A stretch of DNA of 64,000 bases from Candidatus Anstonellaceae archaeon (GTDB lineage Archaea; Micrarchaeota; Micrarchaeia; Anstonellales; Anstonellaceae), in NCBI GenBank assembly GCA_038891055.1, contig JAWAEU010000001.1, forward strand, positions 1,475 to 65,474. Reading direction: 5' to 3'. This document shows, piece after piece, positions 25,839-62,717 of this stretch. Position numbers and translations under genes: made by a program. The notes beneath the pieces are model-generated. The model was not told the DNA's origin. It did not search any database and worked only from the letters and a program-made list of their open reading frames with translations. Position 1 is the stretch's first letter; each line of letters starts with the position of its first letter.

Positions 25839-25950
25839 GTCAGCAACAACTGGCTTTCCCGCCAGATGGCAGTAACGGCCAGTCACAAGCAGGCTTAACT
25901 TCCGAGTTCGAAATGGGATCGGGTGTTACCCTGCTCTTATGGTCGCTGAC
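25839..25950 (-). rRNA. 5S ribosomal RNA
   Basis: Reverse strand GTCAGCGACCATAAGAGCAGGGTAACACCCGATCCCATTTCGAACTCGGAAGTTAAGCCTGCTTGTGACTGG…GTTGCTGAC contains the conserved CCGAUCCCAUUUCGAACUCGGAAGUUAAGC block, with terminal helix GUCAGC/GCUGAC. GC-rich island. A TATA-like element (TTTATATAA) lies ~25 nt upstream. Confidence 0.8.
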
Positions 25951-29759: not shown

Positions 29760-29830
29760 AACAAGTTTTTGCAAAATTTGATTTAGTGCGATAAATTTTT
29801 ATTTTATAAATTAGATATAAAATTTGTAAA

Positions 29831-30046
29831 TGGCCCTCGAGCCACTTTCGCTGCCTATTTGGAGGCAGTGAGGAAGCTCTACCCACCAGGTTTTATTAGC
29901 CAACCACATAAAGTGGGGGCATCTTGAGCAGAAACGCTACCCATTTTGGGATGAAACGGCAGGATGCCCTGGCTAGCTGGTGCAAGGCCAGTTTTGGCCG
30001 CTAAGTCAAATGTGGCTTAAAACAGAAGGTAGACTATTGAGGGCCA
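29831..30046 (+). ncRNA. rnpB: RNase P RNA candidate (minimal, ~216 nt)
   Basis: GC-rich island with terminal helix GGCCCUCGA…UUGAGGGCC (P1). The P4 strands UCUACC (after AGGAAG) and GGUAGA (after ACAGAA) match CR-I/CR-V context, and GGGAUGAAACGGCAGG is CR-II-like (GGGUGAAANGGUG). A TATA-like TTTATAAAT lies ~30 nt upstream. Confidence 0.55.
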
Positions 30047-30055
30047 TTTTATAAA

Positions 30056-43979: not shown

Positions 43980-45579
43980 CCTCTCTTTGCTTATATATCT
44001 TTCTATTTGAAAATCTTAACATTATTTTTGTTTTTTCTACTTTTTTATAATTTAGTGTATATTTAAGAGGCACTATTATAGTGTAGTTATTAGAAAAAAA
44101 TTTTATTCTATTTCTCTCTATTTTCGACGTTTTTGTTATTTTTTTATTTTCTTTTCTTTTTTTGAGTGAAATTATTTTTAAATTTAAAAAATTTTTATTA
44201 ACATCACTTAGAATGCTAGAGGTATTTTTAATTTTTTTATTACTATCTTTTTTTGATAAGCGTGTGATTTTTTGGCTGCTTTTAAATTCTTTTTTTGTTT
44301 TTTTAAGAGGTACTTTTTTTTCTTTTATTTCTATTTCTTTTCTATTTTCTAAGTTATTTATAAAATCCAACTTTTGTTTTTTAAATACTGCAAGATTATT
44401 TTGTTTAATATAGTAGGTTTGGCCAATAGAGCTTTTTAGTTCACAGTTTTTTAATTTAAATTCATTCTCTGTGTTTGTTTTATTATTTGCCTCTATTTTA
44501 TCATTATTAAAACTTAGATTTTTAGCTATAATTTGCTGTGAGTTTATTTTATGATTATAGAAGTGGGATATAGCAGTATAAAATTCGAGGTTGCTTTGAG
44601 TAGAGTTTTTAGTTGAGGAGGTAATTTCAAATTTATTATAATCGGCTTTGTTATAATTAATTTTAGGTTGAAATGTTTTATTAATAAAACTTTTTTCCAG
44701 AGAAGTGTTTTGTTTTTTTGGCCCTATATAATTTTTATTATTTTTAAATGGAGAGGATAGTGGGTGAGAATATAAAATTTTTGGGAATATTGAAACATTT
44801 AGTAAATAGAGATACTTTTTGATGTTTTTTATAGTGTTAAAAAAAATGAGTTCGGGGGTGTCTTTGTCTAAATGAAATCTGTTTTTGTTATATGGTAAAA
44901 AAGTCCCTCTGTTGTTTTTTATTCCAAAATTTTGTAAATAAGTTGTTATTTGCTCATTTATAGTAGTTTGAAATTTTTTGTCATTTAAAATATAGCTTAG
45001 TTTTACATCTGGAAGCTTGACAATACTAATTAGAGATGAATCGATTTTATAGCTATTTTTTACATCCTCTTTGTAATTAGTATATTTTACAATTAGTTTT
45101 AATTCTTTTTTGAAAATAAGATCCACTATTATGTTCTCTAATCCTGGCCTATACTCTAAATTACCATAATTGCAGGTTATAAAATGTGCTTTGTTTCCAT
45201 TCAACAAATAAACTTCAAAACCACAACCACTCTCCCCATCTCTATAATCCTGAAAATACTCCATTTTATAATTTTTATATTTCAGCTCGTTTTCAAAGGA
45301 AGCCTTTCCTTCATACAATTTTATAAATTCATTTTCATATCCTTGCAGCATTGCCCCATAATTTGTCTGCCCAACTTTAAATTTTTGGTGATTTTTGAAT
45401 CCTTCAATTAGTTTTTGCCCCATCTGCAACTCAAGCCGTTCTATTCCAACTAACTCATTGTTCAAACCTCTCACTTCTACTAAGACTTCAATTTTTTTAA
45501 AATCATTAATCCTTTTTTCTATACTACCAAAAGCGTTTTTGATTAACCTAGGTATTCCTCCCATTCGCACACCATGCAA
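43864..45579 (-). CDS. Hypothetical protein with a Cys-containing globular N-terminal region and a long K/N-rich C-terminal tail
   Basis: 571-aa ORF. The first ~250 aa (…DGESGCGFEVYLLNGNKAHFITCNYGNLEYRPG…) look like a folded domain; the remainder is low-complexity. Confidence 0.45.
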   Translation of the reverse strand: MHGVRMGGIPRLIKNAFGSIEKRINDFKKIEVLVEVRGLNNELVGIERLELQMGQKLIEGFKNHQKFKVGQTNYGAMLQGYENEFIKLYEGKASFENELKYKNYKMEYFQDYRDGESGCGFEVYLLNGNKAHFITCNYGNLEYRPGLENIIVDLIFKKELKLIVKYTNYKEDVKNSYKIDSSLISIVKLPDVKLSYILNDKKFQTTINEQITTYLQNFGIKNNRGTFLPYNKNRFHLDKDTPELIFFNTIKNIKKYLYLLNVSIFPKILYSHPLSSPFKNNKNYIGPKKQNTSLEKSFINKTFQPKINYNKADYNKFEITSSTKNSTQSNLEFYTAISHFYNHKINSQQIIAKNLSFNNDKIEANNKTNTENEFKLKNCELKSSIGQTYYIKQNNLAVFKKQKLDFINNLENRKEIEIKEKKVPLKKTKKEFKSSQKITRLSKKDSNKKIKNTSSILSDVNKNFLNLKIISLKKRKENKKITKTSKIERNRIKFFSNNYTIIVPLKYTLNYKKVEKTKIMLRFSNRKIYKQREVEIKNDAKGENRKRAKKSRRISSKSNRKTNLSIWAVVG

Positions 45580-45642: not shown

Positions 45643-48600
45643 TTGAAGAAATTAGTCTTTTTTTTATTTTTGTTTATTTTTTTAAATTTTGTTTTTAGTG
45701 AAGCTGTAGAAGATATAAAAATATCCTCACTTAATATAAATGCCACATGTAAAGAATTTTGGAAAAAAGACTTGCCGCCCAAACTTTTTGTGAGTAATCT
45801 TTTAGATGGTAAAAAAATCTACTCCCCATATTTGTTTTATACTTTAGAATCACTAAATCTAATTAATTGGTCAATAGATGAGGCAGATCCTACTACACTG
45901 GATGTTAACATTCCTTCTTCGTTTAACAGAGAAAAGCAATTATTAAAAGACTCATATTCTTTAGCAAAAGAAGCTAAAAATTACTATGAGTTAGCATATT
46001 TAAAATATAAAGAAATTGCACTTACTCTTAAATTTTTTAAATTACTCATGCCCATAGTTTTTCCACCATTACTATTTTTAGGAATTCAAAATGAAATCGA
46101 ATTATTGATTGATTTTTTAAACCAACCATATTCCCTAGATCTAGAGGACGATATTTTAATTTACAATATTTTTCTATTAGAAGACTATTCTTTTTATTGG
46201 GAAAAATCAATTAGTGCTGCAACTTCTTCATTGAAATATTGCACTTCTGCGCTCAACTCTTTTTTTATTTCTGTAGAAAAAAAAGCAATTTTACTTTATG
46301 AAAATGGTATTGAGGACCAAGCTTATTATGGAAAGCCAAAAGAAATTTATAATGAGTGGAAGGAGTTTGTGCAACTATCTAAAAATTATTCTATTAATAA
46401 AATAAGAAGTTCAACTGAACCTGCCATGTATGCTTGGATCTACTTTTTAGCTAACTCTGTCCAACAAACTTGTAATTTAGAAAAAATTTTTCCCTATTTT
46501 TATCCCATGGACTATTTGTTTAATAATGCATGCATCTTAAAAAATGGAAATCTGTTAGACTTTGTAATCAAAATGGATAAAAAAATGTCCATGGCTTTAG
46601 AAAGCCTGCAAGCAGAAGGAGAAGCTGCTTTCAATTCTACGTCTGCTCTAAAAACAAAAGTGGAAGAAAAAATAAAAAAGATCAATTTAGAAGAACCAAT
46701 GAGATTTAGCGGGGATGAAATATTTTCTATTCAACTCTCTGGTATTAAAATCTCAAATATAAGCGGATCTATAGAGGAGCTTTACGATTCTATGAATTCT
46801 TATTTTGCAGAAGGACAATCTTATTTCAACTCTGCTAGCAAATCTAAAAAATTGGTAGAAAAAATCTTACTTTATAAAAAATCATATTCCAGTTATGAAT
46901 TAGCAATGGAAGCAGCAGAACAACTAGAAGAGCTCTTAGCTCAAAAATCAAATATTTCTTGCTCTTATGCAGAGTCTGAATTAAACTCCCTTTCTGCTAA
47001 AATTAAAAAAGTTCAAACACAAAAAGACCATTCTCTTTTGGCAAATTTACTTGAGACTTATAACTCTGCCTCACTATTAATTGACAAAGCAAAAAATTCT
47101 AAAAAGCTTTCTGAGAAATTTTTAAACTGTAAAAAAGCTTATTTGATTATTAGCAACAGTTATAGTTCTGATGCCTCCCTTTCTATTTCTGAAGCTCTGT
47201 TAAAGAAATTTTTAGAATACATCACAGCTGGAGAAAAGATGGGGGCAGATGTTTCATTATACAAAAAAAATTATGAGCAATTTAAAAAATTACTTAGCTT
47301 AAATTATTCCTCTTTGTCTGAAGATATAGAAGCAAATATTCTCTCGATTAAAAGTTATCTTAATAATTTCATGGAAGAAGAAAACTCTCTCCACCAATCC
47401 ATTTTATATTTAGTAGAAAATTCTAAAGATACTCAAAAAGAATTTTTCAATTCCTATAATAAAAAACTAAGCCAATATAGAGAAAATAACCAGTGGAATT
47501 TATACGCTTTTAAAAATAGAAATGCTCTTATTAGTTTTTTAAGATCTTCTTTGAAACAATTGCAACAGAATATTGAGAATTATCTAAAGGATGCGATTTG
47601 TAAAAATGCCAACCTACACAAAACAACTCAAGAGGCAATAACTGTTGATCAATTATTAAAAATTTCAGGTAGTTGGGAAAGTTCAAATCCATTTAATATT
47701 GCATTCCCAAATGGACTTCAGTTTTCTTGTAAGGTAGATTTGGATATATCAAATAATGCTATAAAGTCAAAATCCTCAAACATTGAAAAAGTGATTATAT
47801 CAAATAAAACCCTTCAGATAGTTTTGTCTTCATTAGCTCCGCTTGAAAATATCTACATTAATTTTTCAGAAGATAAAAAACCGTTTTCTTCTTCACTACA
47901 AAATTGCCTTTTGACAATTAGTCCAAACAATAGGATCTCTTTAGACTCAAATTATACTATAAATGGCCTCTATTCTTCAGAAATTGTCCAATTTTTTGTG
48001 CCTTGGGATGTTGTGCTAGATAATACTCAAGCTAAATTATACAATGGATTTTCTTTTTATGATGGTGTTCTGAGCGTCAACAACAATAACTCTCCCGCGA
48101 TAAAATTTATGTTTCCACTAAATTCTCCAAAAAACCAAATTGGGGTTGCAATAAGATCTAACCTTCCAAGAAATTTAGAGAGTAGTGAAGAAAAAATAGA
48201 AGCCCAAAAAGATGGAAAATATCTCAATTCTTATAAATTAAAATTAAATTTCCCACAGTGCAAGAATATTTTTCTACAAAGAACAGAAAAATTTTCCAAC
48301 ATCTCGAATCTAAAGGTAGTATCTTCAGAAGCTAGTGTAAAAAACCTAAAACATTATTCGCTGGGAGAATCTGTTTATTGGGAGGCTTTATTAAATTCTA
48401 AATCAGATGGAAGTATAACAGTAGTTGTATCTTTTGAATTTGCAGATTTAGAGAGGTGGTTTAATTCTTCTTACAGCGAACTTTTGGCTAAGGCTAAAAA
48501 GTACAATGATGAGTATTGTATAAAATTGTTAGAAAGTGCACTTCAATCGTTTAGATCAAAAGATTATAATACAACAACAAAGAAATTAAATGAGGTTAAA

Positions 48601-49752
48601 AAACGCTTAGATTTACTTGAATTAAAAAAAGAAAAAGTGGAACTAGCACAGCAAAAAATAAAACTCATGGGGGAAAGAGTAGAGGCTCTTGAATCGCTTA
48701 TTTCCCAGGACACTAAAAAAATTTCAACCATTAGAAGTTTTGCAAATAATTTAAAAAATGCAATCGAATCTGCAAATAGAACACTGCTTGCAGACCCTGA
48801 TAATTCTATAGCTACTATAGAAAAAGCTAATGCTAAATTAAATTCAGAAATTTTAAAGCAAATAAACACCATACAACCAAAAGCACAAAAAAAGCTTGAT
48901 AATTTAATTTCAATCTACCTAGATGTTGGGTTAGATCAAGAAAATTTATCCTCAATTGCAGATGATATGGCAAAAGTAAGAGAGTTAATTATATCTGATG
49001 ATTTAATAGCCTCCCTAAAACTCCTCTATGCTGTAGAAGATAAAATAGAAGTAGAGGAAAAACTAGCAAATGATCTACTTGTCCAACAATTAGCTGAGAT
49101 GAATACTAAAAAAATCAATTTAGAGAAAATGGCGCAAGAATTAGTATTAAAATTAGATAAATATTTCTTAGAAGCAAAAACATTGGAGGAGGCAAAAACA
49201 CTATTTAAACCCCCCCTAGCAACTAAAGACGTTCAAAACTATAAAAAACCTCTTTTAAATTTATTTAAAGGCTGGGGGGAAGAAAAAACCAATTCCACAG
49301 AAATTTTAGTAAAAAATTTGAAGAAAAACCAAATAATGTTAAAAACTGCCCAAGAAGTAATAAATTCAACTTCCCAATCCTACTCTAAGGCACAAGATAA
49401 GCTGGTCAATAAAGCAAATTCTCTTCTGGCAACTGCAAAGATTCTTCTAAATTCTCCTTCTGCCAAACAAACAGAGTTAGAGGAAAAAATTTCCAAAGCT
49501 CAAGAGCTTATAAATTCTGCTGAATACTCCCAAGCAATAGTTTTATTAGAAAAATTAATGAGGTCTTTTGAACCTAATTCTACATCTTCTGACTTAGAAA
49601 AAGAAAACCTACCATTATTTGAAATAGTAGTATCTGTTGTATTTGTTTTAGCAATAGCATATATTTTGCTTAAGAGTTATAAACCAAAACCACTCCAACA
49701 AAAAAAAGAAATTAAAACCCTAAAAAAATCTCAAGAAGAACAAAACCCTTAA
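45643..49752 (+). CDS. Giant (1369 aa) secreted coiled-coil-rich surface protein with C-terminal TM anchor
   Basis: Signal peptide MKKLVFFLFLFIFLNFVFSEA, long heptad-like K/E/L segments, NxS/T sequons and a C-terminal TM (FEIVVSVVFVLAIAYILL). Confidence 0.6.
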   Translation: MKKLVFFLFLFIFLNFVFSEAVEDIKISSLNINATCKEFWKKDLPPKLFVSNLLDGKKIYSPYLFYTLESLNLINWSIDEADPTTLDVNIPSSFNREKQLLKDSYSLAKEAKNYYELAYLKYKEIALTLKFFKLLMPIVFPPLLFLGIQNEIELLIDFLNQPYSLDLEDDILIYNIFLLEDYSFYWEKSISAATSSLKYCTSALNSFFISVEKKAILLYENGIEDQAYYGKPKEIYNEWKEFVQLSKNYSINKIRSSTEPAMYAWIYFLANSVQQTCNLEKIFPYFYPMDYLFNNACILKNGNLLDFVIKMDKKMSMALESLQAEGEAAFNSTSALKTKVEEKIKKINLEEPMRFSGDEIFSIQLSGIKISNISGSIEELYDSMNSYFAEGQSYFNSASKSKKLVEKILLYKKSYSSYELAMEAAEQLEELLAQKSNISCSYAESELNSLSAKIKKVQTQKDHSLLANLLETYNSASLLIDKAKNSKKLSEKFLNCKKAYLIISNSYSSDASLSISEALLKKFLEYITAGEKMGADVSLYKKNYEQFKKLLSLNYSSLSEDIEANILSIKSYLNNFMEEENSLHQSILYLVENSKDTQKEFFNSYNKKLSQYRENNQWNLYAFKNRNALISFLRSSLKQLQQNIENYLKDAICKNANLHKTTQEAITVDQLLKISGSWESSNPFNIAFPNGLQFSCKVDLDISNNAIKSKSSNIEKVIISNKTLQIVLSSLAPLENIYINFSEDKKPFSSSLQNCLLTISPNNRISLDSNYTINGLYSSEIVQFFVPWDVVLDNTQAKLYNGFSFYDGVLSVNNNNSPAIKFMFPLNSPKNQIGVAIRSNLPRNLESSEEKIEAQKDGKYLNSYKLKLNFPQCKNIFLQRTEKFSNISNLKVVSSEASVKNLKHYSLGESVYWEALLNSKSDGSITVVVSFEFADLERWFNSSYSELLAKAKKYNDEYCIKLLESALQSFRSKDYNTTTKKLNEVKKRLDLLELKKEKVELAQQKIKLMGERVEALESLISQDTKKISTIRSFANNLKNAIESANRTLLADPDNSIATIEKANAKLNSEILKQINTIQPKAQKKLDNLISIYLDVGLDQENLSSIADDMAKVRELIISDDLIASLKLLYAVEDKIEVEEKLANDLLVQQLAEMNTKKINLEKMAQELVLKLDKYFLEAKTLEEAKTLFKPPLATKDVQNYKKPLLNLFKGWGEEKTNSTEILVKNLKKNQIMLKTAQEVINSTSQSYSKAQDKLVNKANSLLATAKILLNSPSAKQTELEEKISKAQELINSAEYSQAIVLLEKLMRSFEPNSTSSDLEKENLPLFEIVVSVVFVLAIAYILLKSYKPKPLQQKKEIKTLKKSQEEQNP

Positions 49753-49849
49753 ATTTAAAAAAGTACCAAAAAATCGACAAAATCTATTTGAAAAGATAGA
49801 ATTTGGGTGAAGATATTCCGACAAACTAGATTTTAGCTAGGTGTGGTAT

Positions 49850-52740
49850 TTTGGTTTAGTAGCAGCAGGCTACACCGCTCGCTTTTGGCTTGCGGCTTAC
49901 ACCTCTGCCCTATCAAACGGATCTGCTATCCGCCCATTAGCCTGACTCGTTTTGAGAGCTGCTTCGACCTTAGATGCTTTCAGGTCTTATCAGCTAGCGC
50001 GTAGCTGCCCGGCGATGCTATTACACAACCGGTACACCAGAGGCGCCGTACCCGTGTTCCTCTCGTACTCATGGGTACTTACTCTCAGTCAGGCAGCACT
50101 TCCAGGAGATACTACCGTACTGTCTCGCGACGTACTGAACCCAGCTCATGTAGGACTTTAATGGATGAACAACCCAACCCTTGGTGGCTCCTACACCACC
50201 AGGATGTCCTAAGCCGACAGCGATGTACCAAACCGCGGGGTCGATGTGTACTCTCGCCCGCGACGAGCCTGTTACCCCCGGGGTAGCTTGTCTGACAGCT
50301 TGGAGCCCCATCAAAAGGCTACCAAGGTTCGTTAAGCCCGGCTTTCGCCTCTGCTCTCCACGCTGTTAGGAGAACAGTCAGCCCAGCATATGTCTTTAAC
50401 CCTTAACAGTGCATTTCTGACGCACCTAAGCTGAGCATTGGGCACCCTTGTTTATTTATCGAGGGTGTACCGCCCCAGCCAAACTATCCACCTGATGCTG
50501 TCTACCCTCTAGGAGTATAAGCAGTACAAGGCAACTAAAATGGTGTTACATCGTCGCCTATCTAATGCCCGAAAGCATTAGCTTAGCGGCTCCCATTTAC
50601 TCTATGTTAGCCACCCTATACCACAACATCAGGCTATAGTAAAGCTCCACGGGGTCTTCGTTTCCCCCTGGAAGTCCACTGCATACTCACAGTGTAGTAG
50701 GTTCACCAGGTCCTGGCATGGGACAGTGGGAGAGTCGTTACGCCCTTCATGCAAGCCACCAATTAAGCGGCGAGGTATTACGCTACCTCAAGAGGGTCAG
50801 AGTTACCCCCGCTCTTTGCCGGCGCTTAGGCCCGTTGTAACAGGCTTTCACGTACCGGTAGTGAGCAGGCGTCACCCGCAATACTAACCGTTTCCGGTTT
50901 GCTGCGAGTTGTGTTTTTGATAAACAGTCGCTCTCCCCTTGTCACTGCGACCTGCTGATGCTTAAAACAACAGCAGGCACCGCTTCTCCCTAAGTTACGC
51001 GGCGAATTTGCCGAGTTCCCTATGCCAAGTTATCCTGCCACGCCTTGGCTTGTTCAGCCAGCAGCACCTGTATTAGTTCTAGGTACGGTTAGCCAAGATC
51101 GCTTTTTACTCTCTTTTCATGGGACCCAGGAATTGGGCAACTTGCGCATTCCTAAGGTTATACCATTTCTCCTGACAATCAGACTCCATGGTATTGCCTT
51201 AGTTAGACAGCCGAAGCTGCTTGCCCTATCCCAAGCCGTCGAGAGTAAAACTTGCGTTACCGCATCTACTTGGCTAGGACCGGAATATTAACCGGTTTCC
51301 CTTTCGCATAGTGGGAATTACCCCTATGCTTAGGACCGCCTAACTCTAGGCTGACGAACATCTCCTAGAAAACCGTGTGCTATGCGGCGTCCAGGATTTT
51401 CACCTGGATATGCTGTTACTAATACCAGGATATTCATAACTGGTCGGTCCATAGGAGCTTACGCCCCTACTTCTATCCAACCAGCTCGCCCCCCTACCAG
51501 CCTTGCACCCATAGAGGTGCAAGCTCTAGGGTATCGGTACTGGGCTTAGTCCCGAGCCTCTTTGAAGATTATACTCTAGACTGGTCCGCTATTACGCGTT
51601 GTTTAAAGGATGGCTGCTTCTAAGCCTACCTTCCAGCTGTTTTTGAGTATAACCTTCTTTGCGATTGACACTTAGCCCAGATTTAGGGACCTTAACCCTA
51701 GGTACGGTCGTTCCCGTAACGGCCTGCTAGCTTACCCAGCAGAACCCGACTCCCTGCTTCTTCGGCGAGTATAGATTCGAGGTTTGACGATCAGGTGAGG
51801 CCTTTCGACCCCGTTCCTGATAATCAGTGCCCTACCCTACACTCTACCTCCGCAGAGGCTATACTGAGATATACTTCGAGGGGAACCCGCTATTGCCGAG
51901 TTCGATTGGACTATCACCCCTACCCGTGGGTCACCCAAGCAGAATATACTAGCACTGGTTGCGGTCCTCCATCCACCTTCAGGTGGACTTCGACCTGCCC
52001 ACGCGTAGATCACATCGGCTTCGGGTCTGAAGGGAGTGACTGCTCGCCATTTCTGACGAGGGGGTAAACCCAACTTGCTTTCGCTTCGGCTCTCGCCTTG
52101 CCACGCCCTTCAACTCCCTGGCCCTTGCTTCGAGAAGGACGATATGACAGTGGGACTGTTCTATCGCGCTTAGCTTCACAGCTAAGCACTTTTAGAACAG
52201 TTATCCTTTCCTGCCATATCAAACTGTAGCCACTTAGTTTCAAGTTCTTTTCACCCCCCGTTTTGGGGAACTTTTCAGCTTTCCCTCGCGGTACTAGTGC
52301 GCTATCGGTCTTGGGTTATATTTAGCATTGGAAGTTGATACTCCCAAATTCACGCCACATACTCAAGTGACGCTACTCTTAAATGGCCTCTTGCCATATT
52401 CTGTCCGCACACGGGGCTATCACCCTCTATGGCTCAGCTTTCCAGCTGATTGTGCTCCAGAACATGGCTAAGTAGCCCCCTACATCTCCAGTCAGTTACC
52501 TGACTTGGATTTAGGGACGTGCTCTTTGGCTTTCACTCACCGTTACTCACCAAATCCCATTTTGGTTTCTCTTCCTGCCGGTACTAAAATGTTTTAATTC
52601 CCGGCGTGAGTTGCCCATCACAGGGACAAGGCCAGACCCCAGGATCGCAGGATTCATGCTCCTCCCCTGGGCTTATCCCAGCTTGACAGGTGGCCATTTC
52701 TACCCAAGCCAAGCTATCCACTAAGTGGCATAACAGCATA
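49850..52740 (-). rRNA. 23S ribosomal RNA (about 2.87 kb; ends approximate)
   Basis: Sharp GC-rich island. The reverse strand contains the sarcin-ricin loop AGUACGAGAGGAAC, domain V GGGGAUAACAGGCU and the 5' domain …CACUUAGUGGAUAGCUUGGCUUGG…GAUAAGCCCAGGGGAGG. It is flanked by a long inverted repeat (49805-49829 vs 52758-52798) typical of archaeal pre-rRNA processing stems. The track ORFs inside it are artefacts. Confidence 0.85.
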
Positions 52741-53030
52741 CCACACCTATTTGCTCTCTAGTTTGTCACTGCAAATGCAATTGGAACTATCTTCACCCAA
52801 TGCCATTGCCAAAAATTGGCAATGGTGAGGCAAAGCCTCTTGCTCTTGGCAGCTGCCAAGATGCAAAAAATACACTAATCTATATGTAAGATAAAATGCA
52901 TCGCAACCAACTTTTTAACAAGCATAGTTGGTGCTGATGTCAGCCTAAAATGGCTGAATTTTAAGTAGAAATAAATATATACCAACAAATATATAAATCT
53001 TTTGGTTGAAAATCTAAACTAATCTATAAA

Positions 53031-54050
53031 CTAATTCGATTTGATGGAAAATTGGTAGCTAATTTGCTCATCAGAAGGAGCAACATAAGAATAGGTTATA
53101 TTTTTTAAAATTCCACTATAATGCATACAGGGATAAAAGAAAGGCGATTCGCAAGAACTCGAACCAAATGAAAGCCAACCTCCAGAATTTGAATAAGTAG
53201 AAATACTATTTACCTCTTCTTCCAAAATTTTTTCTCCATCGAAGAAGAATTTTATAATATTTGCTTTTTTTACAAATACCAAGCTGTGAAAGTTGGTGGT
53301 ATCTACCAAATAAACTTTTTCAATAGAATTCTCACCATCACTAATTGAGATGAATAATTCGTTATCCCCATTAACATATGCCCCAATTTTACTTTGCCCA
53401 TATGGCTCAAAATAGCAAAATATTGTACCTAAATCGTTTGTATCTACAATATTTGGCTTGAAAAATAAACTTAAAAAAAATTCTTCTGAATTTAGTGAAA
53501 AATCAGAATAAAATACTGCCATATCTTTTTCAAATTTTGGATAAGAAAAAAACCACCAATTAAAGGTGTTTTTAACATTTTTTATATTTTTAGGAGTAAA
53601 GGTAGTAGTAGTTTTCTGATGAGCAAGAATAGACTGCTGGAGAGATTTAGAAGAATTTTGCTCCACGGTCAAATTAGATTGATTAGTGGTATTTTCTTGG
53701 AATTGGTTGGCACTTGAATTCAAAATCTCATTAGTATTATTAGTAAACTCAGTAGTATTATTAGTAAAATTAGAAATATTTGAATCAGAGGCCGAGGTAG
53801 AATTTTGGGTCGAATTTTCTAAAATTTGATTATCGGATAGAGAGGTAGAATTTAGATCTTCAGAATCATTTGCTAAATTTTCTTCATTACTTTCAGTAGT
53901 AAAATTAGCAACACTTTGATTAGTTTGATTAGAATTATCACTCAAATTAAAGTCTTGAGTAGTGTTTATTTCTTGCATAAAACAAATAGGAATAACTAAA
54001 ACAAAAATGAACAGCAAAAAAAAATTATTCATACAAAATATTAAAAACAA
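53031..54050 (-). CDS. Secreted surface protein with N/S/T-rich glycosylation region and C-terminal lectin-like (ConA/LamG-like) beta domain
   Basis: Signal/TM MFLIFCMNNFFLLFIFVLVIPICF, ~150 aa of Asn/Ser/Thr low-complexity sequence dense in NxT/S, then a beta-rich C-terminal domain. Confidence 0.5.
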   Translation of the reverse strand: MFLIFCMNNFFLLFIFVLVIPICFMQEINTTQDFNLSDNSNQTNQSVANFTTESNEENLANDSEDLNSTSLSDNQILENSTQNSTSASDSNISNFTNNTTEFTNNTNEILNSSANQFQENTTNQSNLTVEQNSSKSLQQSILAHQKTTTTFTPKNIKNVKNTFNWWFFSYPKFEKDMAVFYSDFSLNSEEFFLSLFFKPNIVDTNDLGTIFCYFEPYGQSKIGAYVNGDNELFISISDGENSIEKVYLVDTTNFHSLVFVKKANIIKFFFDGEKILEEEVNSISTYSNSGGWLSFGSSSCESPFFYPCMHYSGILKNITYSYVAPSDEQISYQFSIKSN

Positions 54051-54056
54051 AAAATT

Positions 54057-54860
54057 TTAAAACCCGATATATTTAAAAATTTTATCAAAGATAGACCTAA
54101 AATCTGGCCTTTTGAATGAAAATAAATTTCCCTGTAATTTACAGCCACCTATTTTTGCTGCAAATTTTTTTAATTGCACTGAAGATTTGGAATTTGGATA
54201 TGCTAATAAAACTGGCATTTTCTCTGCAATCGCTCGTGGAATATTTTGGTCTTCTGGAATTTGTGCGATTATCTTGTCTTCTAAAATTTGCTCTATTTCT
54301 GGGGTTTTTAACTCATAGGATTGGCCTGAAACTCTATTTAGCACATATAAAATTTGCTGGTCTTTTACTTTAAGTTTTTTGATAATCGAAGCAATTTTTA
54401 GAGCAGCGGACACAGATGGGATATCTGGAGTCATTACAACAACTACTATGTTGGAAGCTTCTAGAGCTTCTCTTACTTCTCTTGGAAGGCCTGGGGGGCA
54501 ATCCAAAAAACAACAATTATAGCTCTGAGAGTGAAGAACTCTAAATAATTTTGATAGGGAGGGAAGTTTTAGTTTTTTACTCAAACCATCTTCGGTAATG
54601 GATGGGAATAAACATCTCAAACCAGTAGGAGGATGAATTATTAAAGATTCTTCTAATGTCGCCTTGTTTTTTAAAAAAGAGGAGAGGCCAACATAACTGT
54701 GGGTTAAACCCAGATGAAAGGCTACTGAAGGATTATAAAAATCTAAATCAGCAATTAAACATTGGTTTTTTGCTAGAGCAGCATATATTGCTAAATTAGT
54801 TGCAATAGTTGTTTTTCCAACACCACCCTTACCAGAAACAAAGGAGATCATATGCTTCAT
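54057..54860 (-). CDS. MinD/ParA-family P-loop ATPase
   Basis: Deviant Walker A SGKGGVGKTTIATNLA and Walker B-region LIADLDF. 267 aa. Confidence 0.8.
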   Translation of the reverse strand: MKHMISFVSGKGGVGKTTIATNLAIYAALAKNQCLIADLDFYNPSVAFHLGLTHSYVGLSSFLKNKATLEESLIIHPPTGLRCLFPSITEDGLSKKLKLPSLSKLFRVLHSQSYNCCFLDCPPGLPREVREALEASNIVVVVMTPDIPSVSAALKIASIIKKLKVKDQQILYVLNRVSGQSYELKTPEIEQILEDKIIAQIPEDQNIPRAIAEKMPVLLAYPNSKSSVQLKKFAAKIGGCKLQGNLFSFKRPDFRSIFDKIFKYIGF

Positions 54861-54925
54861 AAAATAAATAACAAAAAAGATTATTTAAAACTTTCATTTT
54901 TAAATTTTTTGTTAAAAAATATATA

Positions 54926-55249
54926 TTGAAAAATTTATTGATGGAGAATATGAAAAAAATACTTGTGATATTTTTGATTTTGTTTATAAATGGGTGTATA
55001 ACTCCCTATAAAAATCCAGATTATATATGCGCTTGTATAGTTAAGCATGAAAATCCAGCCACTCAACAAATTGATGAGTCTTATGCAGGCACTATAGGTG
55101 GAAAAACTCCGCAGGAGGTTTTACAAAAGTGTAATGAAACTGCAAAAAACTCCTATTCTCAAATTTTAGAAATTAAATGCGATACTTTGAGCTGGAGCGA
55201 GTGGAATAAAAAAATTGAAAAAGAAAGGGAGATTAGAAAGGGTTCTTAA
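54926..55249 (+). CDS. Hypothetical small secreted/lipoprotein-like protein
   Basis: Signal peptide with lipobox-like FINGC; 6 Cys in 107 aa. Confidence 0.4.
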   Translation: MKNLLMENMKKILVIFLILFINGCITPYKNPDYICACIVKHENPATQQIDESYAGTIGGKTPQEVLQKCNETAKNSYSQILEIKCDTLSWSEWNKKIEKEREIRKGS

Positions 55250-55317
55250 AATTTTAAGCCTAAATTTTGAGTATATTTAAAAAATAACTTAATAAATTTA
55301 AAGAAGATAAAATATTT

Positions 55318-55950
55318 ATGAATATTTTAAATAGGCTGTTTTTATTGAGTTTTATTTTGTTAAGTGGAATTAGCTTTTCTCAACTAAAGGTTGAACTAAT
55401 AACTCCACAAAATGGACTTTATACAAACCCTGGCCCAATTAGTTTTATTTTCAATACTACAAATACCACTAGTTTAGAAGAATTGGAAGATAAAATTGAT
55501 CCAAAAAATTTAACTTGTTATTTAGTATTACAAATTGGAAATAGATATTTAAAGCAAGGCCCACTAAATTTGCCCTTAGGAGAAAAAGGAGAATTTGAAT
55601 ACAAAAGTTTTCCTCCAAATACATATATTTGGTCAGTGCAGTGCAATGGATTTTCTTCCGAATATAGAGTTTTAATAGTCCAAAACCAAAGTTTTGAGGA
55701 ATTTGTGGAACAACTAAAAACAAATAAAACAAATACTACAGCTAACAAATCAGAGAGAGAGGTAGAAAATAAAGCTCAAACAGAAAATAAAACAAACGAC
55801 CAAGACTACTCAACCCTAAGACAAAATCAAAATCAGCTGATTTTTTATTTTTTAGTTGGTTTAATTTTTTTAATAGTGTTAATTTACTTTATTGTAAACT
55901 CTCGACAAAAGCAAAAAAATCAACAAAAAAATGACAAAGAAAAAAATTAG
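55318..55950 (+). CDS. Hypothetical surface protein (signal peptide, C-terminal TM)
   Basis: MNILNRLFLLSFILLSGISFS, sequon-rich, with C-terminal TM LIFYFLVGLIFLIVLIYFIV. Confidence 0.45.
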   Translation: MNILNRLFLLSFILLSGISFSQLKVELITPQNGLYTNPGPISFIFNTTNTTSLEELEDKIDPKNLTCYLVLQIGNRYLKQGPLNLPLGEKGEFEYKSFPPNTYIWSVQCNGFSSEYRVLIVQNQSFEEFVEQLKTNKTNTTANKSEREVENKAQTENKTNDQDYSTLRQNQNQLIFYFLVGLIFLIVLIYFIVNSRQKQKNQQKNDKEKN

Positions 55951-56006
55951 ACATACAAAAATCTTTTTTAGGCAAATTAATATAAAATTTATATTAAAAT
56001 TAAATA

Positions 56007-58142
56007 TTGATGAGAAAATTATTCGTCTTAATTTTTTTTATTTTAATTATTGAAAATTTTTTTTCTTATTATAGTGTAGGAGATCCAGTAGTTGTTTATG
56101 CATCCACTAGTGGTACTTGTGGAATAAATTGCCCAAAGATAAGATTTTGGAATAGCACATCTAACACTTGGGGCCAAGAAATTGAGCTTGGGCCAGATTT
56201 GGAATTACAGAGTACTGGGGCAGCTATAAGAGAAGCCAGAGTATATATTTCTCCAAATAATCAAAAAATTTTAGTAGTCACTCAAAATGATAATGGGGAA
56301 ATAGATCTCTATGCCAGTTGGGACGCTATTAAATGGTTTCAGACCAGAAATCTAACAAAGCTTTGGACAAGTTCGCCTACCGTTCATTATAGAGGCTTTG
56401 ATTTGGCTTATGAATATAAAACAAATAATGCTATTTTGGCTTTTAGTGTAGTAAATACCTCTACTACTTGCGATGTTGGATATTATATAATACCAGCATC
56501 CAGCCTTGAAGTTAATGGTAGTTATGGCTGTATTGATGACACTACCGTATCAACTGATATTACTTCCAGGTTTGTAAGAGCAGAGGCAAAACCAAATTAC
56601 TCTTCTAGAGAAATAGTAATTGCAACAACAGAAACATCTGAAGATGACGTTAATGCATGGGTTTGGAATGGAAGTGCATGGGGAAATCAAATGGAAGTAG
56701 CAAATTCAGCAACTGCTACAGGAGACTATGAAGCGATGGATATTAAATATTCTGCAGATAATGGCAGTATTTTGATGTTTGTGGCAGGAGATGGGACTGC
56801 TGGAAATGTAAATTATGCTATTTGGAATGGAAGTAGCTGGAGCACTCCTGGTAGTTTTGATATTGACACCTCGGATTTAAATGATGTAAGATGGTTGAGA
56901 CTTGCCCCCAAACCACTCACAGCTAACTTTAGCCTAATCTCAATAGATTCTGGGTCTGATTTGGCTTATTGGTATTGGAATGGCTCTGCTTGGGGGAATA
57001 ATGTTTCAAATGTAGATGCTGCAATAGATATTGCAACCACAAGATGTGGAGATATTGCTTGGGTAAATAACTCTGTTGGCTACTTGATATGGGATACTGA
57101 TACTACAGGAACTACACTTAGTAGAAGAAATATGAGTTCAACTGGAGCACTATCTGCTGCAAGTACATTTTCAACATATGCTGGGACAGGTGCATGGCTA
57201 GATCTCTATCCAAATCCAAATCAGACACATAGGATTAAAATTTTAGGGATTAGAATGAATAACGCCTTTTCTTTAGGAAGTTTTTATTTTAATGGTACTC
57301 CTCAAACCTTTATTAATTTAGGAGATAGCTCTCTAACTACCAATACCACTGCCTCAACTACTGGCAAAAGATTTGGGGCTGATTTTTTTAAAGTTATAGA
57401 TACAGTAGGGCCAACAATAGGAACTACACAGGTAAATACGACTTCTGTCCCTGCTAATCAAAATATTTGTGTTTATGTAAATGCTACAGATCAACTGAGC
57501 GTACCTGTTAGAATAATCGAAGTTTATGTGATTTATCCAAATGGAACAGGGAGGTGGGAAACTCTCTCAGATCTTGGATGTAATGCTGGATCTTATGATG
57601 ATGGTTGGTTTGGGGCTACAATAAACGTAGGTTCAGTTCCAGGAAATCTAACTATTAATACAACCAGAGCATATGATGCCTTTTGGAATTCAAATTCTAC
57701 ATATCCCGACATAAGAGTAGAGGTTACACTTAATTTAATAGTAGACATTTCAATCTCTGCATCTACTCTTAGTTTTGGTTCCCTTGATCCTGGAACAAAC
57801 GACAATCCTGCCTCAGAAAATCCAATAACTCTAACAAACACTCCAAACAGCAATACTGCTGTGGATGTGTACTTTAGTAATACAAATATGACTACTGGAG
57901 TATATTATATGCCTGCTAATGCTCTATCAATAAACACAGTAAATAATGCTGCAACATCTACAAATTTCAATGGTTCAACTTATATCAATGGAACAGGAGC
58001 AAACCAAGGTTATATTGAAAATTTAGCAATAAATAATAATGTAAATCTTTATTTCTGGCATGATGTGCCAAGTGGGCAGAATGCAGGAACATATACTGCC
58101 ACTGTGACAATTCATGCAGTAGCAGATGGAATAACTCCATAA
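56007..58142 (+). CDS. Secreted 711-aa repeat protein (recurring W-N-G-S-(A/S)-W motif; possible beta-propeller)
   Basis: Signal peptide MMRKLFVLIFFILIIENFFS. Repeats WVWNGSAWGNQ / AIWNGSSWSTPG / YWYWNGSAWGNN. No TM anchor. Confidence 0.5.
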   Translation: MMRKLFVLIFFILIIENFFSYYSVGDPVVVYASTSGTCGINCPKIRFWNSTSNTWGQEIELGPDLELQSTGAAIREARVYISPNNQKILVVTQNDNGEIDLYASWDAIKWFQTRNLTKLWTSSPTVHYRGFDLAYEYKTNNAILAFSVVNTSTTCDVGYYIIPASSLEVNGSYGCIDDTTVSTDITSRFVRAEAKPNYSSREIVIATTETSEDDVNAWVWNGSAWGNQMEVANSATATGDYEAMDIKYSADNGSILMFVAGDGTAGNVNYAIWNGSSWSTPGSFDIDTSDLNDVRWLRLAPKPLTANFSLISIDSGSDLAYWYWNGSAWGNNVSNVDAAIDIATTRCGDIAWVNNSVGYLIWDTDTTGTTLSRRNMSSTGALSAASTFSTYAGTGAWLDLYPNPNQTHRIKILGIRMNNAFSLGSFYFNGTPQTFINLGDSSLTTNTTASTTGKRFGADFFKVIDTVGPTIGTTQVNTTSVPANQNICVYVNATDQLSVPVRIIEVYVIYPNGTGRWETLSDLGCNAGSYDDGWFGATINVGSVPGNLTINTTRAYDAFWNSNSTYPDIRVEVTLNLIVDISISASTLSFGSLDPGTNDNPASENPITLTNTPNSNTAVDVYFSNTNMTTGVYYMPANALSINTVNNAATSTNFNGSTYINGTGANQGYIENLAINNNVNLYFWHDVPSGQNAGTYTATVTIHAVADGITP

Positions 58143-58183
58143 GTTCCAAAACATTTAAAAATATAAAATTCTAAGTTAAGGAT

Positions 58184-58987
58184 ATGACCAGCATAAAGTA
58201 CAAATTAAATTTAAGCACTTTTTTTTTATTTTTTTTATTATTTTTTTATCAGTTTTATCAGGCTTTTGCCCAAAGTCCTAGGCCAATGTATGACTTTGGA
58301 TCGATGCAACAAGGAAAAACTTTTAGTGCTGAGCCTGGGGAAACCATAAATCTAAGCTTGTTTTTTTTCGTAGATAAGGAATATGGAAATAGAATAACTC
58401 ATGTTAGTTTAGATGTAAGCGAAAAACCAGAAGGATGGGATATACAACTAATCCCCCCTAAACATAAAGAATTGGTAAATGTAAGTGGAATTTTGGTTGA
58501 ATCTGAAGAAAATATTTATGTAGAACCAAGAGAGATTCTGCCTCAAAAACCACAAGTAGCTGAAGAAGGAATAAGCTATATTTTATCTCCCTCAGGTAAG
58601 GGATATTTGCAAGCAAAAGAAGTTAAGATAGTGGTAAAGGTACCACCAAATGCAAAACTTGGACAGACATATCCACTAAAAATTTCTGCTGAGGCATTTT
58701 GGTTTGGATCTGAAGGAAATATAGCTCTAAGACAGAGCAGAACATTTAGATATGAGATAAAAGTAGTTAGAAAAGAATTTAGTGAAGAGATTGTAAAACA
58801 AAAACCGCCAGTAGAGCAAGAGGAAAAACAAACCTCACCACAGTTTGATTACTACCTAATAGCAACAGTAGTTATTGTAATAGTTCTGTTAGTGTTTGCT
58901 GCATATAAAATATTTTTCTCAAAAAGCAGCAAAGAGAAAAAAACAACAACAATACAAAAAACTAAGAAGAAAAATAAGAAAAAATAA
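58184..58987 (+). CDS. Surface protein (signal peptide, beta domain, C-terminal TM + K-rich tail)
   Basis: Hydrophobic N-terminus (LSTFFLFFLLFFYQFYQAFA) and C-terminal TM YYLIATVVIVIVLLVFAAY followed by KKTTTIQKTKKKNKKK. Confidence 0.5.
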   Translation: MTSIKYKLNLSTFFLFFLLFFYQFYQAFAQSPRPMYDFGSMQQGKTFSAEPGETINLSLFFFVDKEYGNRITHVSLDVSEKPEGWDIQLIPPKHKELVNVSGILVESEENIYVEPREILPQKPQVAEEGISYILSPSGKGYLQAKEVKIVVKVPPNAKLGQTYPLKISAEAFWFGSEGNIALRQSRTFRYEIKVVRKEFSEEIVKQKPPVEQEEKQTSPQFDYYLIATVVIVIVLLVFAAYKIFFSKSSKEKKTTTIQKTKKKNKKK

Positions 58988-59028
58988 AAGGTAGTAAAAG
59001 TGGATAAAAAAAATTTAGGTGAAAAATC

Positions 59029-60816
59029 TTGCAAAAAACCTTTTTATTTATTTTTTTATTTGTTTTTTTTAGTTTTATTCATTTAACTTTTTGCCCACCA
59101 GTAGAACAACAAAATTTTGTTTTGAATGCTTTTTTAGAAGTTTTGGAAAAATCAAATATTATAATTAAAAATTTTTCTCTCAGTCAAACTAAAATTTATA
59201 TTGATAGCCAAGAGCCAGTTGAATTTTATATTCAAATTCAAAATATTGGAAATAAAATAGAAACTATTTCGTCTAAAATCGACATTTATTATTATTACAA
59301 CCATAGCTATGTAAAAACCATAGAGATAGAAAACAGTAGTTTGATAGGCGGAGAAGAAGAAATAAAAGTAGTTAATTTTGAGTATGGAGATTTGCAAGAA
59401 GCAAAATATAGTGCTACTTTAACTATAACTTATGGGGGAACAACAAAAAACTCTACCATAGATTTTGAAGCTGTTAGAAGGCAACAGCAAAACATACAAA
59501 GAGAGGAGGTAAGCGGAGGAAGTGGAGGCGGAGAAATAAAGGTGAGATATAGCCCAACCGTCCCAAAAATAGAGCAAAAAAGTACTATTTTTACACAAGG
59601 TATTGGTCTTTTAAAAAATACTTATTTTAGCCAAGTATACCAAAACGAAAGAGGCTACTTTATACTTACAATAGAAAACCAAAACTTAGAAGAAAAAATA
59701 ATTAAAATAAAATACCCCCAAACTGATGAATTTATTTTTAGTGGTCCAAAAGAAATTGTAGTTGAACCTAAAAGTAATTTGACTATTTTAGTAGGGTTTG
59801 AACCAAAGGAAGCAAAAAAAGAAGGTTATTATGTATTTGATATTGGCTTAGAAGTTGAAAATAGTAGTACAATACAAACATATGCTATAAATTTACTTAA
59901 GGCAGAACAAAAACCAATTTTAATAAAAAGAAATATTGTCATAGATAGGGCAACAAATCAAACAATAGTTTATTTAGAGCTAAAAAATCAACTAAATACA
60001 AAGATTTCTTATTTGGAAATATACGAAAGAGTACCAACTAAATTGTTTGAAAAAATCGAACAGGGGGGTTATAGTGGAAAAAATAGTGTTTTTCCAGCCA
60101 CTCTGTGGTTTGGAATAAAAGATATCTATCCACAAGAATCTCAAATAATAAGTTATAAAATAAATACACTTCTAAGCGATTTGGAGGATTGCACTAAATT
60201 TTCTGTGATGCAAGTTTCCATCTATCAGCCTTCTCAAAAAACTTCTATTTATAGTAGTTTGGAAAAAATAATTTTTAGTCAAACAAAAAATTTGATATTT
60301 AGAGAGGCTGGTAGCCAAACTCTAACTTTTGAACTTCTTAACAACGATTTAAAACAAAAATTAATAGAAATAACAATTAAACTTCCTACTGGTTGGACAA
60401 CAAACAACCCAAAATTAAAAATTTTTCTAGAGCCAAGAAAAAAAACTACTCTGGAAGTGCTGATTTTTAGCCCACAAAAATTAGAGACAGGACAGTATAT
60501 AGGTAATATAGAGATAAGCAGCGAGGATGAAAAAAAAGAAAAAGAATTTGTGATAAATGTAGAGAGCGGATTGTCTGGTCAACAAGTTATTCAATACATC
60601 TACATTCAAAAGCCCCTTGAGCTATACTTAGAGGAAATAAAGGAAAAAATAGTTATTATGAAAGACGCAATATTTTTCCTCACTACCATTAGCTTATTTG
60701 TTTTAATTTATATAATATTGCACAAAAAACAAAAAGAAACAGAATTTGCTGCTATTTCGTACAGTGAGCTTGAAAAATTAAAAGAGAGTATAAAAAGAGA
60801 GATAAGACTACCATAA
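59029..60816 (+). CDS. Surface protein, 595 aa (signal peptide, repeated beta domains, C-terminal TM)
   Basis: MQKTFLFIFLFVFFSFIHLTFC and a C-terminal TM (FFLTTISLFVLIYIIL). Domain style resembles 58184-58987 and 19868-21346. Confidence 0.5.
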   Translation: MQKTFLFIFLFVFFSFIHLTFCPPVEQQNFVLNAFLEVLEKSNIIIKNFSLSQTKIYIDSQEPVEFYIQIQNIGNKIETISSKIDIYYYYNHSYVKTIEIENSSLIGGEEEIKVVNFEYGDLQEAKYSATLTITYGGTTKNSTIDFEAVRRQQQNIQREEVSGGSGGGEIKVRYSPTVPKIEQKSTIFTQGIGLLKNTYFSQVYQNERGYFILTIENQNLEEKIIKIKYPQTDEFIFSGPKEIVVEPKSNLTILVGFEPKEAKKEGYYVFDIGLEVENSSTIQTYAINLLKAEQKPILIKRNIVIDRATNQTIVYLELKNQLNTKISYLEIYERVPTKLFEKIEQGGYSGKNSVFPATLWFGIKDIYPQESQIISYKINTLLSDLEDCTKFSVMQVSIYQPSQKTSIYSSLEKIIFSQTKNLIFREAGSQTLTFELLNNDLKQKLIEITIKLPTGWTTNNPKLKIFLEPRKKTTLEVLIFSPQKLETGQYIGNIEISSEDEKKEKEFVINVESGLSGQQVIQYIYIQKPLELYLEEIKEKIVIMKDAIFFLTTISLFVLIYIILHKKQKETEFAAISYSELEKLKESIKREIRLP

Positions 60817-61001: not shown

Positions 61002-62528
<1,527 letters not shown>

Positions 62529-62717
62529 AAGCTTTGGAGATGTTTGTGCAAGGCCTTTTTCTGTCCTTGGAATAAATCCAAAGAGTGCTCTGCTTTATCT
62601 ATTTTTGATAAAAAGTCGCGCATCTCCCCTGAACCATGCCAAAAAATCGATGAGTTGCAATTTTTTAAGATAACTTTAAATACTTTTCCGTCGTAAATAA
62701 TATGTAAAAAATTCACG

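Follow-up and report, generated by a model that had tools for sequence, protein, structure and literature searches.

Between the 23S and 16S ribosomal RNA (rRNA) genes of a 64,000-nucleotide stretch of DNA (hereafter the window) from a Candidatus Anstonellaceae archaeon lies a block of seven genes, one encoding a MinD-type ATPase (MinD267) and six encoding proteins with an N-terminal hydrophobic segment. Five of the seven, specifying MinD267, the lectin-domain protein LamG339, the large secreted protein p711, and the membrane-anchored proteins p267 and p595, constitute a recurrent module, known from about 17 independent DPANN loci. We propose, with an even chance of being right, that the module encodes a conserved and so far DPANN-only surface adhesion complex that is coupled through the cytoplasmic tail of p595 to a dedicated, membrane-binding MinD ATPase. 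The observed basis of this proposal consists of the gene content of the block, the conservation of the module, the folds of the p711 propeller and of p267, the family-level homology of LamG339, the family membership of MinD267, and the covariation of MinD with the p595 tail. A search of the accessible literature found no description of the module.

The window is archaeal and AT-rich, with ~30% G+C outside the rRNA genes, and belongs to a low-GC member of the Micrarchaeota in the family Anstonellaceae, which is placed within the Micrarchaeia, a DPANN lineage; the source archaeon is tiny and probably host-dependent. A preliminary description of the block had given its coordinates and open reading frames (ORFs) correctly but had counted eight genes, whereas seven ORFs of at least 60 residues are found between the 23S and 16S rRNA genes, and the intergenic spacers of 6-68 bp therefore leave no space for an eighth. 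Given these short spacers, the block can be read as a pair of divergent transcription units on either side of a common AT-rich spacer of 65 bp, which is probably a bidirectional promoter region, judging from its sequence. The LamG339 gene had been listed among genes that run divergently from MinD, though also as co-oriented with it; it lies on the same strand, 6 bp downstream, and is presumably cotranscribed with MinD.

A five-gene module linked to a MinD-type ATPase

Related loci (designated by L numbers) were gathered from p711 homologs and their contigs, then from p267 homologs, and then from MinD homologs. Homologs of MinD, LamG, p711, p267, and p595 are found together in L001, L002 and L088 (which derive from the same organism), L003, L006, L008, L087, and L094; p711 identity across these loci ranges from 71% down to 35%, and the MinD linkage is kept to 35%. 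Gene order is collinear in L006 (MinD-LamG-p711-p267-p595) and includes a gene for a small protein with the C-terminal domain of p711 (smallCT) in L094 (MinD-LamG-p711-smallCT-p267-p595). In L088, smallCT, p711, LamG, and p595 occupy one strand and p267-MinD the other, L095 has the order p267-p595-MinD, and in L003 from the Nanoarchaeia, where p711 is 35% identical, MinD-LamG-p711 stands opposite two smallCT and two p267 paralogs. The order in L087 is LamG-p711 … smallCT-p267-p595-MinD, with three unrelated minus-strand genes (3134-5291) inserted between p711 and the remainder, so the module tolerates splitting. The homologs of p595 in module loci are often directly upstream of MinD. The most specific marker of the module is p267, whose family, for which no curated model exists, accounts for about 288 of the 50%-identity clusters in a set of 1.84 billion representatives; a metagenome scan with p267 returned 7 loci. 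Directly downstream of the p711 ortholog in L003 starts a called protein of 12,055 residues (12315-22184 and beyond), which has no Pfam matches on record.

Of 13 module loci, 11 have a MinD-like gene within ±10 kb, versus 2 of 70 loci that encode only the propeller of p711 (Fisher p 3.6e-10, although the phylogenetic relatedness of the loci makes this test and the one given below overstate independence). A propeller paralog without the module is also encoded at L018, in the same metagenome-assembled genome as L005. The reverse test started from the MinD relatives P0090, P0095, and P0096 (34-38% identity), each of which is encoded directly after a membrane-anchored protein of 550-690 residues; the anchored proteins at L084 and L085 match the p595 family by BLAST, and the one at L086 matches that at L085. 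The MinD linkage is not due to chance, and its conservation, which the preliminary description had named as a check on its reading, extends down to 35% p711 identity. Two of the loci have features of their own. Within 3.6 kb of L085 (7193-10777) there are three MinD-like paralogs with 37-45% mutual identity, two of them in tandem directly after a p595-like gene, and in L086 (2311-8813), in this one locus only, an FtsZ gene is found 5 kb upstream of smallCT-p267like-p595like-MinD on the same strand.

The presence of MinD is accompanied by a particular form of the p595 cytoplasmic tail. In all 12 scored loci that contain MinD, the tail of the p595-family protein is 24-39 residues long, mixed in charge, and helix-like, with 2-6 acidic residues (for example, YSELEKLKESIKREIRLP in the window and YSEERMDYMKMVRRMFK in L006), whereas in all four loci without MinD it is 5-15 residues long and lysine-rich, with 0-1 acidic residues; the two classes do not overlap (Fisher p 5.5e-4). 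Tails were scored by length and acidic-residue count, as a strict regular expression missed most true tails, and an L003 candidate without BLAST similarity to p595 was excluded. When the pattern was noticed, L007 was the only locus known to be without MinD, and its tail was short and lysine-rich; L090, the next, was likewise. Loci L094-L097 were fetched afterward, and all four matched the prediction: the tails in L094 (…YDKERVEDIKQLERMFKRSK) and L095 (…YSRERIGSLKMMERMFEQ…), which contain MinD, are long, and those in L096 and L097, which do not, are short and basic. We infer that the p595 tail contacts MinD directly.

MinD267 is the only one of the seven proteins with significant Pfam or NCBIfam matches; none of the other six has a match above threshold. 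Its Pfam matches to CbiA (65.6 bits), ParA (56.1 bits), and AAA_31 (53.4 bits) all exceed the gathering scores. Among NCBIfam models, minD_arch (TIGR01969) scores best at 149.1 bits, followed by minD_bact (88 bits) and BcsQ (72 bits); because 149.1 bits is below the curated minD_arch cut-off of 201.75 bits, MinD267 is a divergent relative of the curated archaeal MinD subfamily and not a certified member. The best solved structures are likewise archaeal MinDs (E 4e-28 to 3e-19), with A. fulgidus MinD-1 (1HYQ, E 4e-28) the nearest and Pyrococcus MinD (1G3Q/1ION) among them. The deviant Walker A lysine and the switch/Walker B aspartates of the ParA/MinD superfamily are present in the motifs GKGGVGKT (residues 10-17), DLD (at 38), and DCPPG (at 120). 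Also present is a C-terminal amphipathic helix, the mark of MinD-type versus ParA-type ATPases: of all 11-residue segments in the protein, RSIFDKIFKYI at the C terminus has the highest hydrophobic moment (0.74, 100th percentile), and a basic amphipathic C terminus is found in 12 of 13 module-linked MinDs. The analogy to the membrane-targeting sequences found in bacterial MinD and in MinD4 of H. volcanii (bioRxiv 10.1101/2020.04.03.021790) makes this helix a putative membrane-binding element. A protein on record identical to MinD267 is annotated as "MinD/ParA family protein" from Candidatus Anstonellaceae archaeon. In a neighbor-joining tree without bootstrap, the Micrarchaeota module MinDs, MinD267 included, make up a branch of their own, apart from a Methanobacterium "cell division ATPase MinD"; the preliminary description had taken grouping with canonical cell division MinD as a result that would count against it, and the tree places them separately. 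Pfam scans that covered the block and a selection of large window ORFs gave no match to MinC or MinE.

Another explanation of these data would be that MinD267 is an ordinary division or partition ATPase that stands beside surface genes by chance in a compact genome, without a functional link to them. DPANN genomes are indeed dense, the best family and nearest structure are those of archaeal cell division MinD and A. fulgidus MinD-1, and the FtsZ gene of L086 is near the module. This explanation is nonetheless very improbable in our estimation: the linkage survives rearrangements and divergence to 35% identity at frequencies of 11/13 versus 2/70, the p595 tail covaries with MinD presence, the three paralogs of L085 are unlike a single housekeeping gene, and the MinD267 score is under the NCBIfam MinD cut-off.

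Predicted surface proteins encoded in the block

Table 1. Positions of the block genes, their principal domains, and the rRNA genes in the window
Feature	Position	Strand	Details
5S rRNA	25838-25950		24 kb from 23S gene
23S rRNA	49837-52745	-	archaeal, complete; Rfam
LamG339	53031-54050	-	339 residues
MinD267	54057-54860	-	267 residues
MinD267 C-terminal amphipathic helix (…RSIFDKIFKYIGF)	54060-54101	-	putative membrane-targeting sequence; highest hydrophobic moment
Divergent AT-rich intergenic region	54861-54925	.	65 bp; between MinD (-) and the five plus-strand genes; sequence read directly
lipo107	54926-55249	+	107 residues
p210	55318-55950	+	210 residues
p711	56007-58142	+	711 residues
p711 leader		+	residues 1-25
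p711 beta-propeller	56082-57386	+	residues ~26-460; 7-8 blades, W-N-G-S-A-W repeats
p711 Ig-like domain	57414-57731	+	residues ~470-575
p711 CT domain	57735-58139	+	residues ~577-711; ~145 residues
p267	58184-58987	+	267 residues
p595	59029-60816	+	595 residues
p595 cytoplasmic tail (KQKETEFAAISYSELEKLKESIKREIRLP)	60727-60813	+	29 residues; proposed MinD docking/regulatory peptide
16S rRNA	61002-62529	+	Rfam

In addition to the N-terminal hydrophobic leader common to the six non-MinD products, p210, p267, and p595 each have a membrane-spanning segment near the C terminus and, after it, a basic tail, in keeping with the secreted or anchored character first ascribed to them. The numbers of N-X-S/T sequons in these proteins were compared with those of shuffled sequences. 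Pfam scans of the seven proteins detected no T2SSE, T2SSF, or Class_IIIsignal match (components of archaeal type IV pili), and no T2SSE or pilin genes were found by Pfam scan of the block.

The 711-residue protein had been thought propeller-like on account of recurring W-N-G-S-A-W repeats. The motif W-N-G-S-[AS]-W does recur, at residues 220, 273, and 324 with a looser copy at 48, and a model built from a 17-sequence alignment contains the propeller and is confident over residues 30-575, with a predicted local distance difference test (pLDDT) score below 50 for residues 577-711. The propeller resembles the fucose-binding lectins PLL and BP39L. The protein has 25 sequons versus 14.5 expected from shuffles (p~0.002), and it is probably a secreted glycoprotein with a lectin-like head. 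The propeller domain alone is widespread; in Methanosarcinales, Nitrosotenuis, Saccharibacteria, and other groups it is joined to different C-terminal domains.

The CT domain of p711 also occurs in related loci as stand-alone secreted proteins of 167-217 residues. A large and a stand-alone small protein with the common CT domain are encoded in L003, L007, L087, L088, L090, L092, L094, L096, and L097, and the truncated locus L089 has the small copy only. The CT profile weakly matches the N-terminal beta-sandwich of GH123 (E 1.3e-3), and the weak Pfam matches of the domain are to CARDB and GH123_N_2. A relationship of the CT domain to the spore-coat-U/DUF4402/type-1-pilin group was considered on the strength of the ending "…VPAGQ.AG.Y…V.I", and gave one weak DUF4402 match (E 0.005); as an ending of the form "…VP.GQ.AG.Y…" is a common last-strand motif of NEW3/CARDB domains, this specific pilin assignment was dropped.

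The association of large and small CT proteins is open to another reading, in which the module builds a non-type-IV filament: the small CT protein would polymerize by strand exchange, p711 would be the tip adhesin, p267 and p595 would act as PapD-like chaperones or an assembly platform, and MinD would localize or license the filament. Chaperone-usher pili (Csu/Fim) and Sulfolobus threads (PMC9715654) resemble the module in that p267 has a PapD-like Ig sandwich and in that large and small proteins have a domain in common; they differ in that there is neither an usher nor an outer membrane here, no incomplete fold of the pilin type was seen, and the small subunit is missing in the window, and the defining features of chaperone-usher/donor-strand pili were not found in the module. 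There is no gene for a small subunit in the window, L001, or L006, so no shaft could be built in the window, and what the CT profile matches is not a pilin but a complete sandwich of the GH123_N/NEW3 type. Matches to Ig folds are of a generic kind, and the low CT pLDDT may only reflect a shallow alignment. The Sulfolobus thread operon (Saci_0405-0408) was considered as a precedent and rejected, as it contains no ParA/MinD gene. A filament is possible for loci that encode the small CT protein and is a weak explanation for the window; overall we consider it unlikely.

LamG339 consists of a hydrophobic leader, a low-complexity, sequon-rich stalk of ~150 residues, and a C-terminal Laminin-G/ConA-like lectin domain (residues ~155-339). 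It contains 20 sequons versus 9.3 expected from shuffles (p~0.001), in agreement with the heavy sequon decoration of a lectin-like protein noted initially. LamG339 alone has no Pfam match above threshold, so its Laminin-G membership is transitive, through the family profile and its homologs. It matches L001_9477, which carries PF13385/PF02210, with a BLAST E of 2e-8, its positional counterparts in related loci carry PF13385 (Laminin_G_3), and the family profile with the window sequence as first row matches the LG domains of neurexin and laminin (E 5e-24).

The anchored protein p267 comprises a leader, an immunoglobulin (Ig)-like beta-sandwich of ~160 residues (NEW3/NPCBM_assoc-like), an E/Q/K/P linker, a membrane-spanning helix, and a lysine-rich tail, and its model (Ig-like sandwich, linker, and membrane helix) is confident, with a mean pLDDT of 86.5; Foldseek searches with p267 gave generic Ig folds only, so the likeness is at the level of the fold class. 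For p595, a leader, several Ig-like domains, a membrane-spanning helix at residues ~540-567, and a cytoplasmic tail are predicted, and its Pfam matches are all weak (ASH, Cep192_D3/D4/D6, TRAPPC13_M, and NPCBM_assoc). No homology between the domains of p267 and p595 was detected with hhalign (probability 0.9%), and searches of the PDB with profiles of the two proteins gave only noise, such as JmjC and GH123 at E>0.03. Together with the CT domain and the p711 propeller, p267 and p595 represent families currently without a Pfam or NCBIfam model. Of the two remaining plus-strand products, lipo107 has five cysteines, a hydrophobic leader, and a lipobox-like F-I-N-G-C, and no homolog of it was found in any related locus, which places it outside the conserved core. 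The other, p210, has a leader, a domain of ~110 residues, an N/Q/K-rich linker, a C-terminal membrane-spanning helix, and a basic tail; it has 8 sequons versus 3.1 expected from shuffles, and its homologs are confined to L001 (42%) and L005 (98%).

The stalked proteins could instead form an envelope or S-layer scaffold, spanning the 20-25 nm pseudo-periplasm or associated with the S-layer, in which MinD ties insertion to growth or division and there is no adhesion device. The anchoring of the Micrarchaeota S-layer is unresolved (bioRxiv 10.1101/2021.04.28.441871), which leaves room for such a role. The Micrarchaeota S-layer protein itself is defined by PF05123 (bioRxiv 10.1101/2021.04.28.441871), and no match to this domain at E<=1 was found in any of the seven proteins, so we rejected an identification of module proteins with it. 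The lectin-type domains of the heads also speak against a scaffold, and the rarity of the module (about 288 p267 clusters), together with propeller paralogs that occur without it, fits an accessory better than a core system. A scaffold therefore seems improbable to us.

A proposed adhesion complex and its relation to known systems

In the adhesion complex that we propose, p711 would present its lectin-like propeller on an Ig stalk outside the cell, and LamG339 would present a ConA-like lectin domain on a heavily N-glycosylated stalk. The CT domain of p711, probably a NEW3/CARDB-like sandwich, would dock onto p267, p595, or both and so keep p711 at the membrane, by analogy with the WxL/WxLIP proteins discussed below. 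Inside the cell, the 29-residue charged tail of p595 would contact the MinD ATPase, the ATP-bound dimer of which would bind the membrane through its C-terminal amphipathic helix, and MinD would then recruit the complex, cluster it, or assign it a position such as one pole or a contact site.

The preliminary description had already seen in the block a surface or adhesion module with MinD-dependent positioning and a candidate role in host interaction. Its surface features and its MinD linkage are supported here; adhesion, host interaction, and positioning are suggested by domain types (LamG, lectin-like propeller) and by the behavior of other ParA/MinD ATPases, and the docking of CT onto an anchor and the contact of tail and MinD are likewise inferences. 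The hosts to which Micrarchaeota attach are Thermoplasmatales, and expansions of LamG in Micrarchaeota have been connected with host contact (PMC5498576), which makes attachment to a partner cell the likeliest role; attachment to a partner cell or to glycans is the likely function of the complex as a whole. A further step, which we put forward tentatively and regard as rather doubtful, is an inside-out positioning system of DPANN archaea, in which MinD would read the cytoplasmic peptide of a single-pass Ig-stalk protein and set the site of a lectin-headed complex, this site being the host-contact pole of an episymbiont.

Several points in addition to the relatedness of the loci weigh against the proposed complex. 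The four loci without MinD may represent few losses, and MinD could lie beyond the range fetched for them; L096 and L007 are cut 2-3 kb from a contig end. The tails of L003 and L028 are divergent. The small CT-only protein is absent from the window, and, because the pLDDT of the CT domain is below 50, its fold rests on weak profile matches (E 1.3e-3).

It is still an open question how DPANN archaea recognize hosts and hold on to them, and the bulk of DPANN surface proteins lack annotation. The module offers a testable candidate of five genes, with lectin-type heads, anchors, a cytoplasmic ATPase, and a predicted contact between the p595 tail and MinD.

In overall design the module resembles a WxL/WxLIP complex joined to a MinD/TadZ-style positioning ATPase, and it is a member of neither group. 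In Gram-positive WxL clusters, a small and a large WxL protein are held at the surface by WxLIP, a membrane protein with two Ig domains (DUF916-DUF3324-TM) (PMC10599100). The same combination of large and small proteins with a common C-terminal domain and of membrane-anchored Ig proteins is found in L007, L087, L088, L090, L094, L096, and L097; it differs in the window, from which the small protein is absent. WxL clusters, moreover, lack both a MinD ATPase and a counterpart of p595 with a cytoplasmic tail. WxL, DUF916, and DUF3324 gave no sequence match, with WxL unmatched in p711 and the CT-only proteins even at E<=10, and the CT alignment contains no W-x-L motifs; the sole exception is a "faint" WxLIP_HBD flag on a neighboring protein in L003. 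Peptidoglycan, the binding target of a WxL-type domain, is absent from archaea. If the proposed docking is correct, a WxL-like anchoring principle, either independently arisen or anciently shared, would exist in archaea without peptidoglycan.

The same layout could serve nutrition, with the lectins assembled on the surface to scavenge polysaccharide or host glycans and not to attach to other cells. The two lectin-type heads (LamG and the PLL/BP39L-like propeller) and the WxL-like layout (PMC10599100; PMC1534035) are compatible with this function, which was the one first proposed for the csc/WxL clusters of Lactobacillus plantarum, similar in layout. We rate glycan capture as quite unlikely, because no glycoside hydrolase or transporter genes were found in the block or in related loci, and because it leaves the coupling to MinD unexplained.

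ParA/MinD ATPases that place envelope machines include TadZ, FlhG, and BcsQ in bacteria and MinD4 and MinD2 in Haloferax (bioRxiv 10.1101/2020.04.03.021790; PMC11588486). MinD267 has the deviant Walker A motif and MinD-like fold of TadZ, FlhG, BcsQ, and MinD4 and the C-terminal amphipathic helix of MinD, MinD4, and FlhG (bioRxiv 10.1101/2020.04.03.021790), and its gene, like tadZ and bcsQ, is alongside those of the surface apparatus that it presumably serves; the haloarchaeal MinD4 gene, in contrast, is not beside the genes of its cargo. TadZ/CpaE proteins differ from MinD267 in having a receiver-like N-domain and a Tad/Flp locus. MinD267 consists of the ATPase only, in 267 residues, and the CpaE proteins that it matches, at 26-31% identity, are ~400 aa long. 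The presumed cargo also differs from that of all these ATPases, being a single-pass adhesin anchor and not a pilus, flagellar, archaellar, or synthase machine. If the proposed coupling holds, p595 would be the first adhesin anchor to be recognized as a ParA/MinD cargo, and the cargo range of these ATPases would widen to single-pass surface anchors. A 2020 survey reported MinD-like genes only in Euryarchaeota (bioRxiv 10.1101/2020.04.03.021790), and the presence of MinD267 in Micrarchaeota places MinD-like proteins outside that group.

rRNA genes and other features of the window

The rRNA genes of the window are unlinked, and those for 23S and 16S rRNA are divergent and 8.3 kb apart. The position of the block, described initially as wedged between them, is confirmed for the window but is restricted to this lineage. 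A hot-spring Micrarchaeia contig (L005) has p210-p711-p267-p595-16S at 96-98% identity, which shows that the arrangement is not an assembly artifact; the adjacency in L005 is observed on the 16S side only. In L001, the 71%-identical relative, the 23S (5119-8022, +) and 16S (12387-13914, -) genes are convergent, with only MinD-LamG-p711 between them and with p595 and p267 past the 16S gene, and this interleaving of module and rRNA genes in another order and orientation implies inversions with breakpoints at the rRNA genes. There is no rRNA gene near the module in L006, L087, or L088. As the adjacency is limited to close relatives, we rejected the wedge as a functional feature and regard it as a lineage-specific rearrangement around unlinked rRNA genes. 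The source of L001 (GCA_023819445.1, JAMWBN010000001.1) labels its proteins Candidatus Omnitrophica bacterium, a bin label that appears to be wrong because archaeal 16S and 23S genes, together with a module copy that is 71% identical, are found in this record.

The composition and domain style of the block had been said to recur at 19868-21346 and 24306-25667. Both genes encode membrane-anchored CARDB/NEW3 or Big_1 proteins, so the statement is correct for the fold class; they have no sequence similarity to the block and belong to other systems. The first of them is part of an operon (19179-23796, +) with an ATP-binding cassette (ABC) ATPase, the membrane-anchored CARDB/NEW3 protein, and two MacB/FtsX-type permeases. 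COG1470-type anchored CARDB/NEW3 proteins such as this one resemble p267 and p595 in their leader, sandwiches, C-terminal membrane-spanning helix, and basic tail; they differ in having no detectable similarity to them and in their partners, an ABC ATPase and FtsX/MacB permeases versus MinD, LamG, and the propeller protein. At its cut end, L095 has an ABC ATPase gene followed by that of a weakly CARDB-like protein, the start of a similar arrangement; the combination of an Ig-stalk protein and a MacB-type transporter may thus recur.

A large share of the window is unannotatable "dark matter," including five large ORFs of 556-1369 residues without a Pfam match at E<=1e-4 (13828-17070, 30056-31726, 32244-34598, 43864-45579, and 45643-49752). 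An Rfam tRNA match at 28092-28224 (-), without an ARAGORN call, extends over 133 nt, against 71 positions in the model, and probably represents an archaeal tRNA with an intron. An archaeal RNase P RNA match at 29829-30048 (+) covers model positions 1-288 in 220 nt, with 95 bits versus a gathering score of 84, and looks like a reduced form of this RNA.

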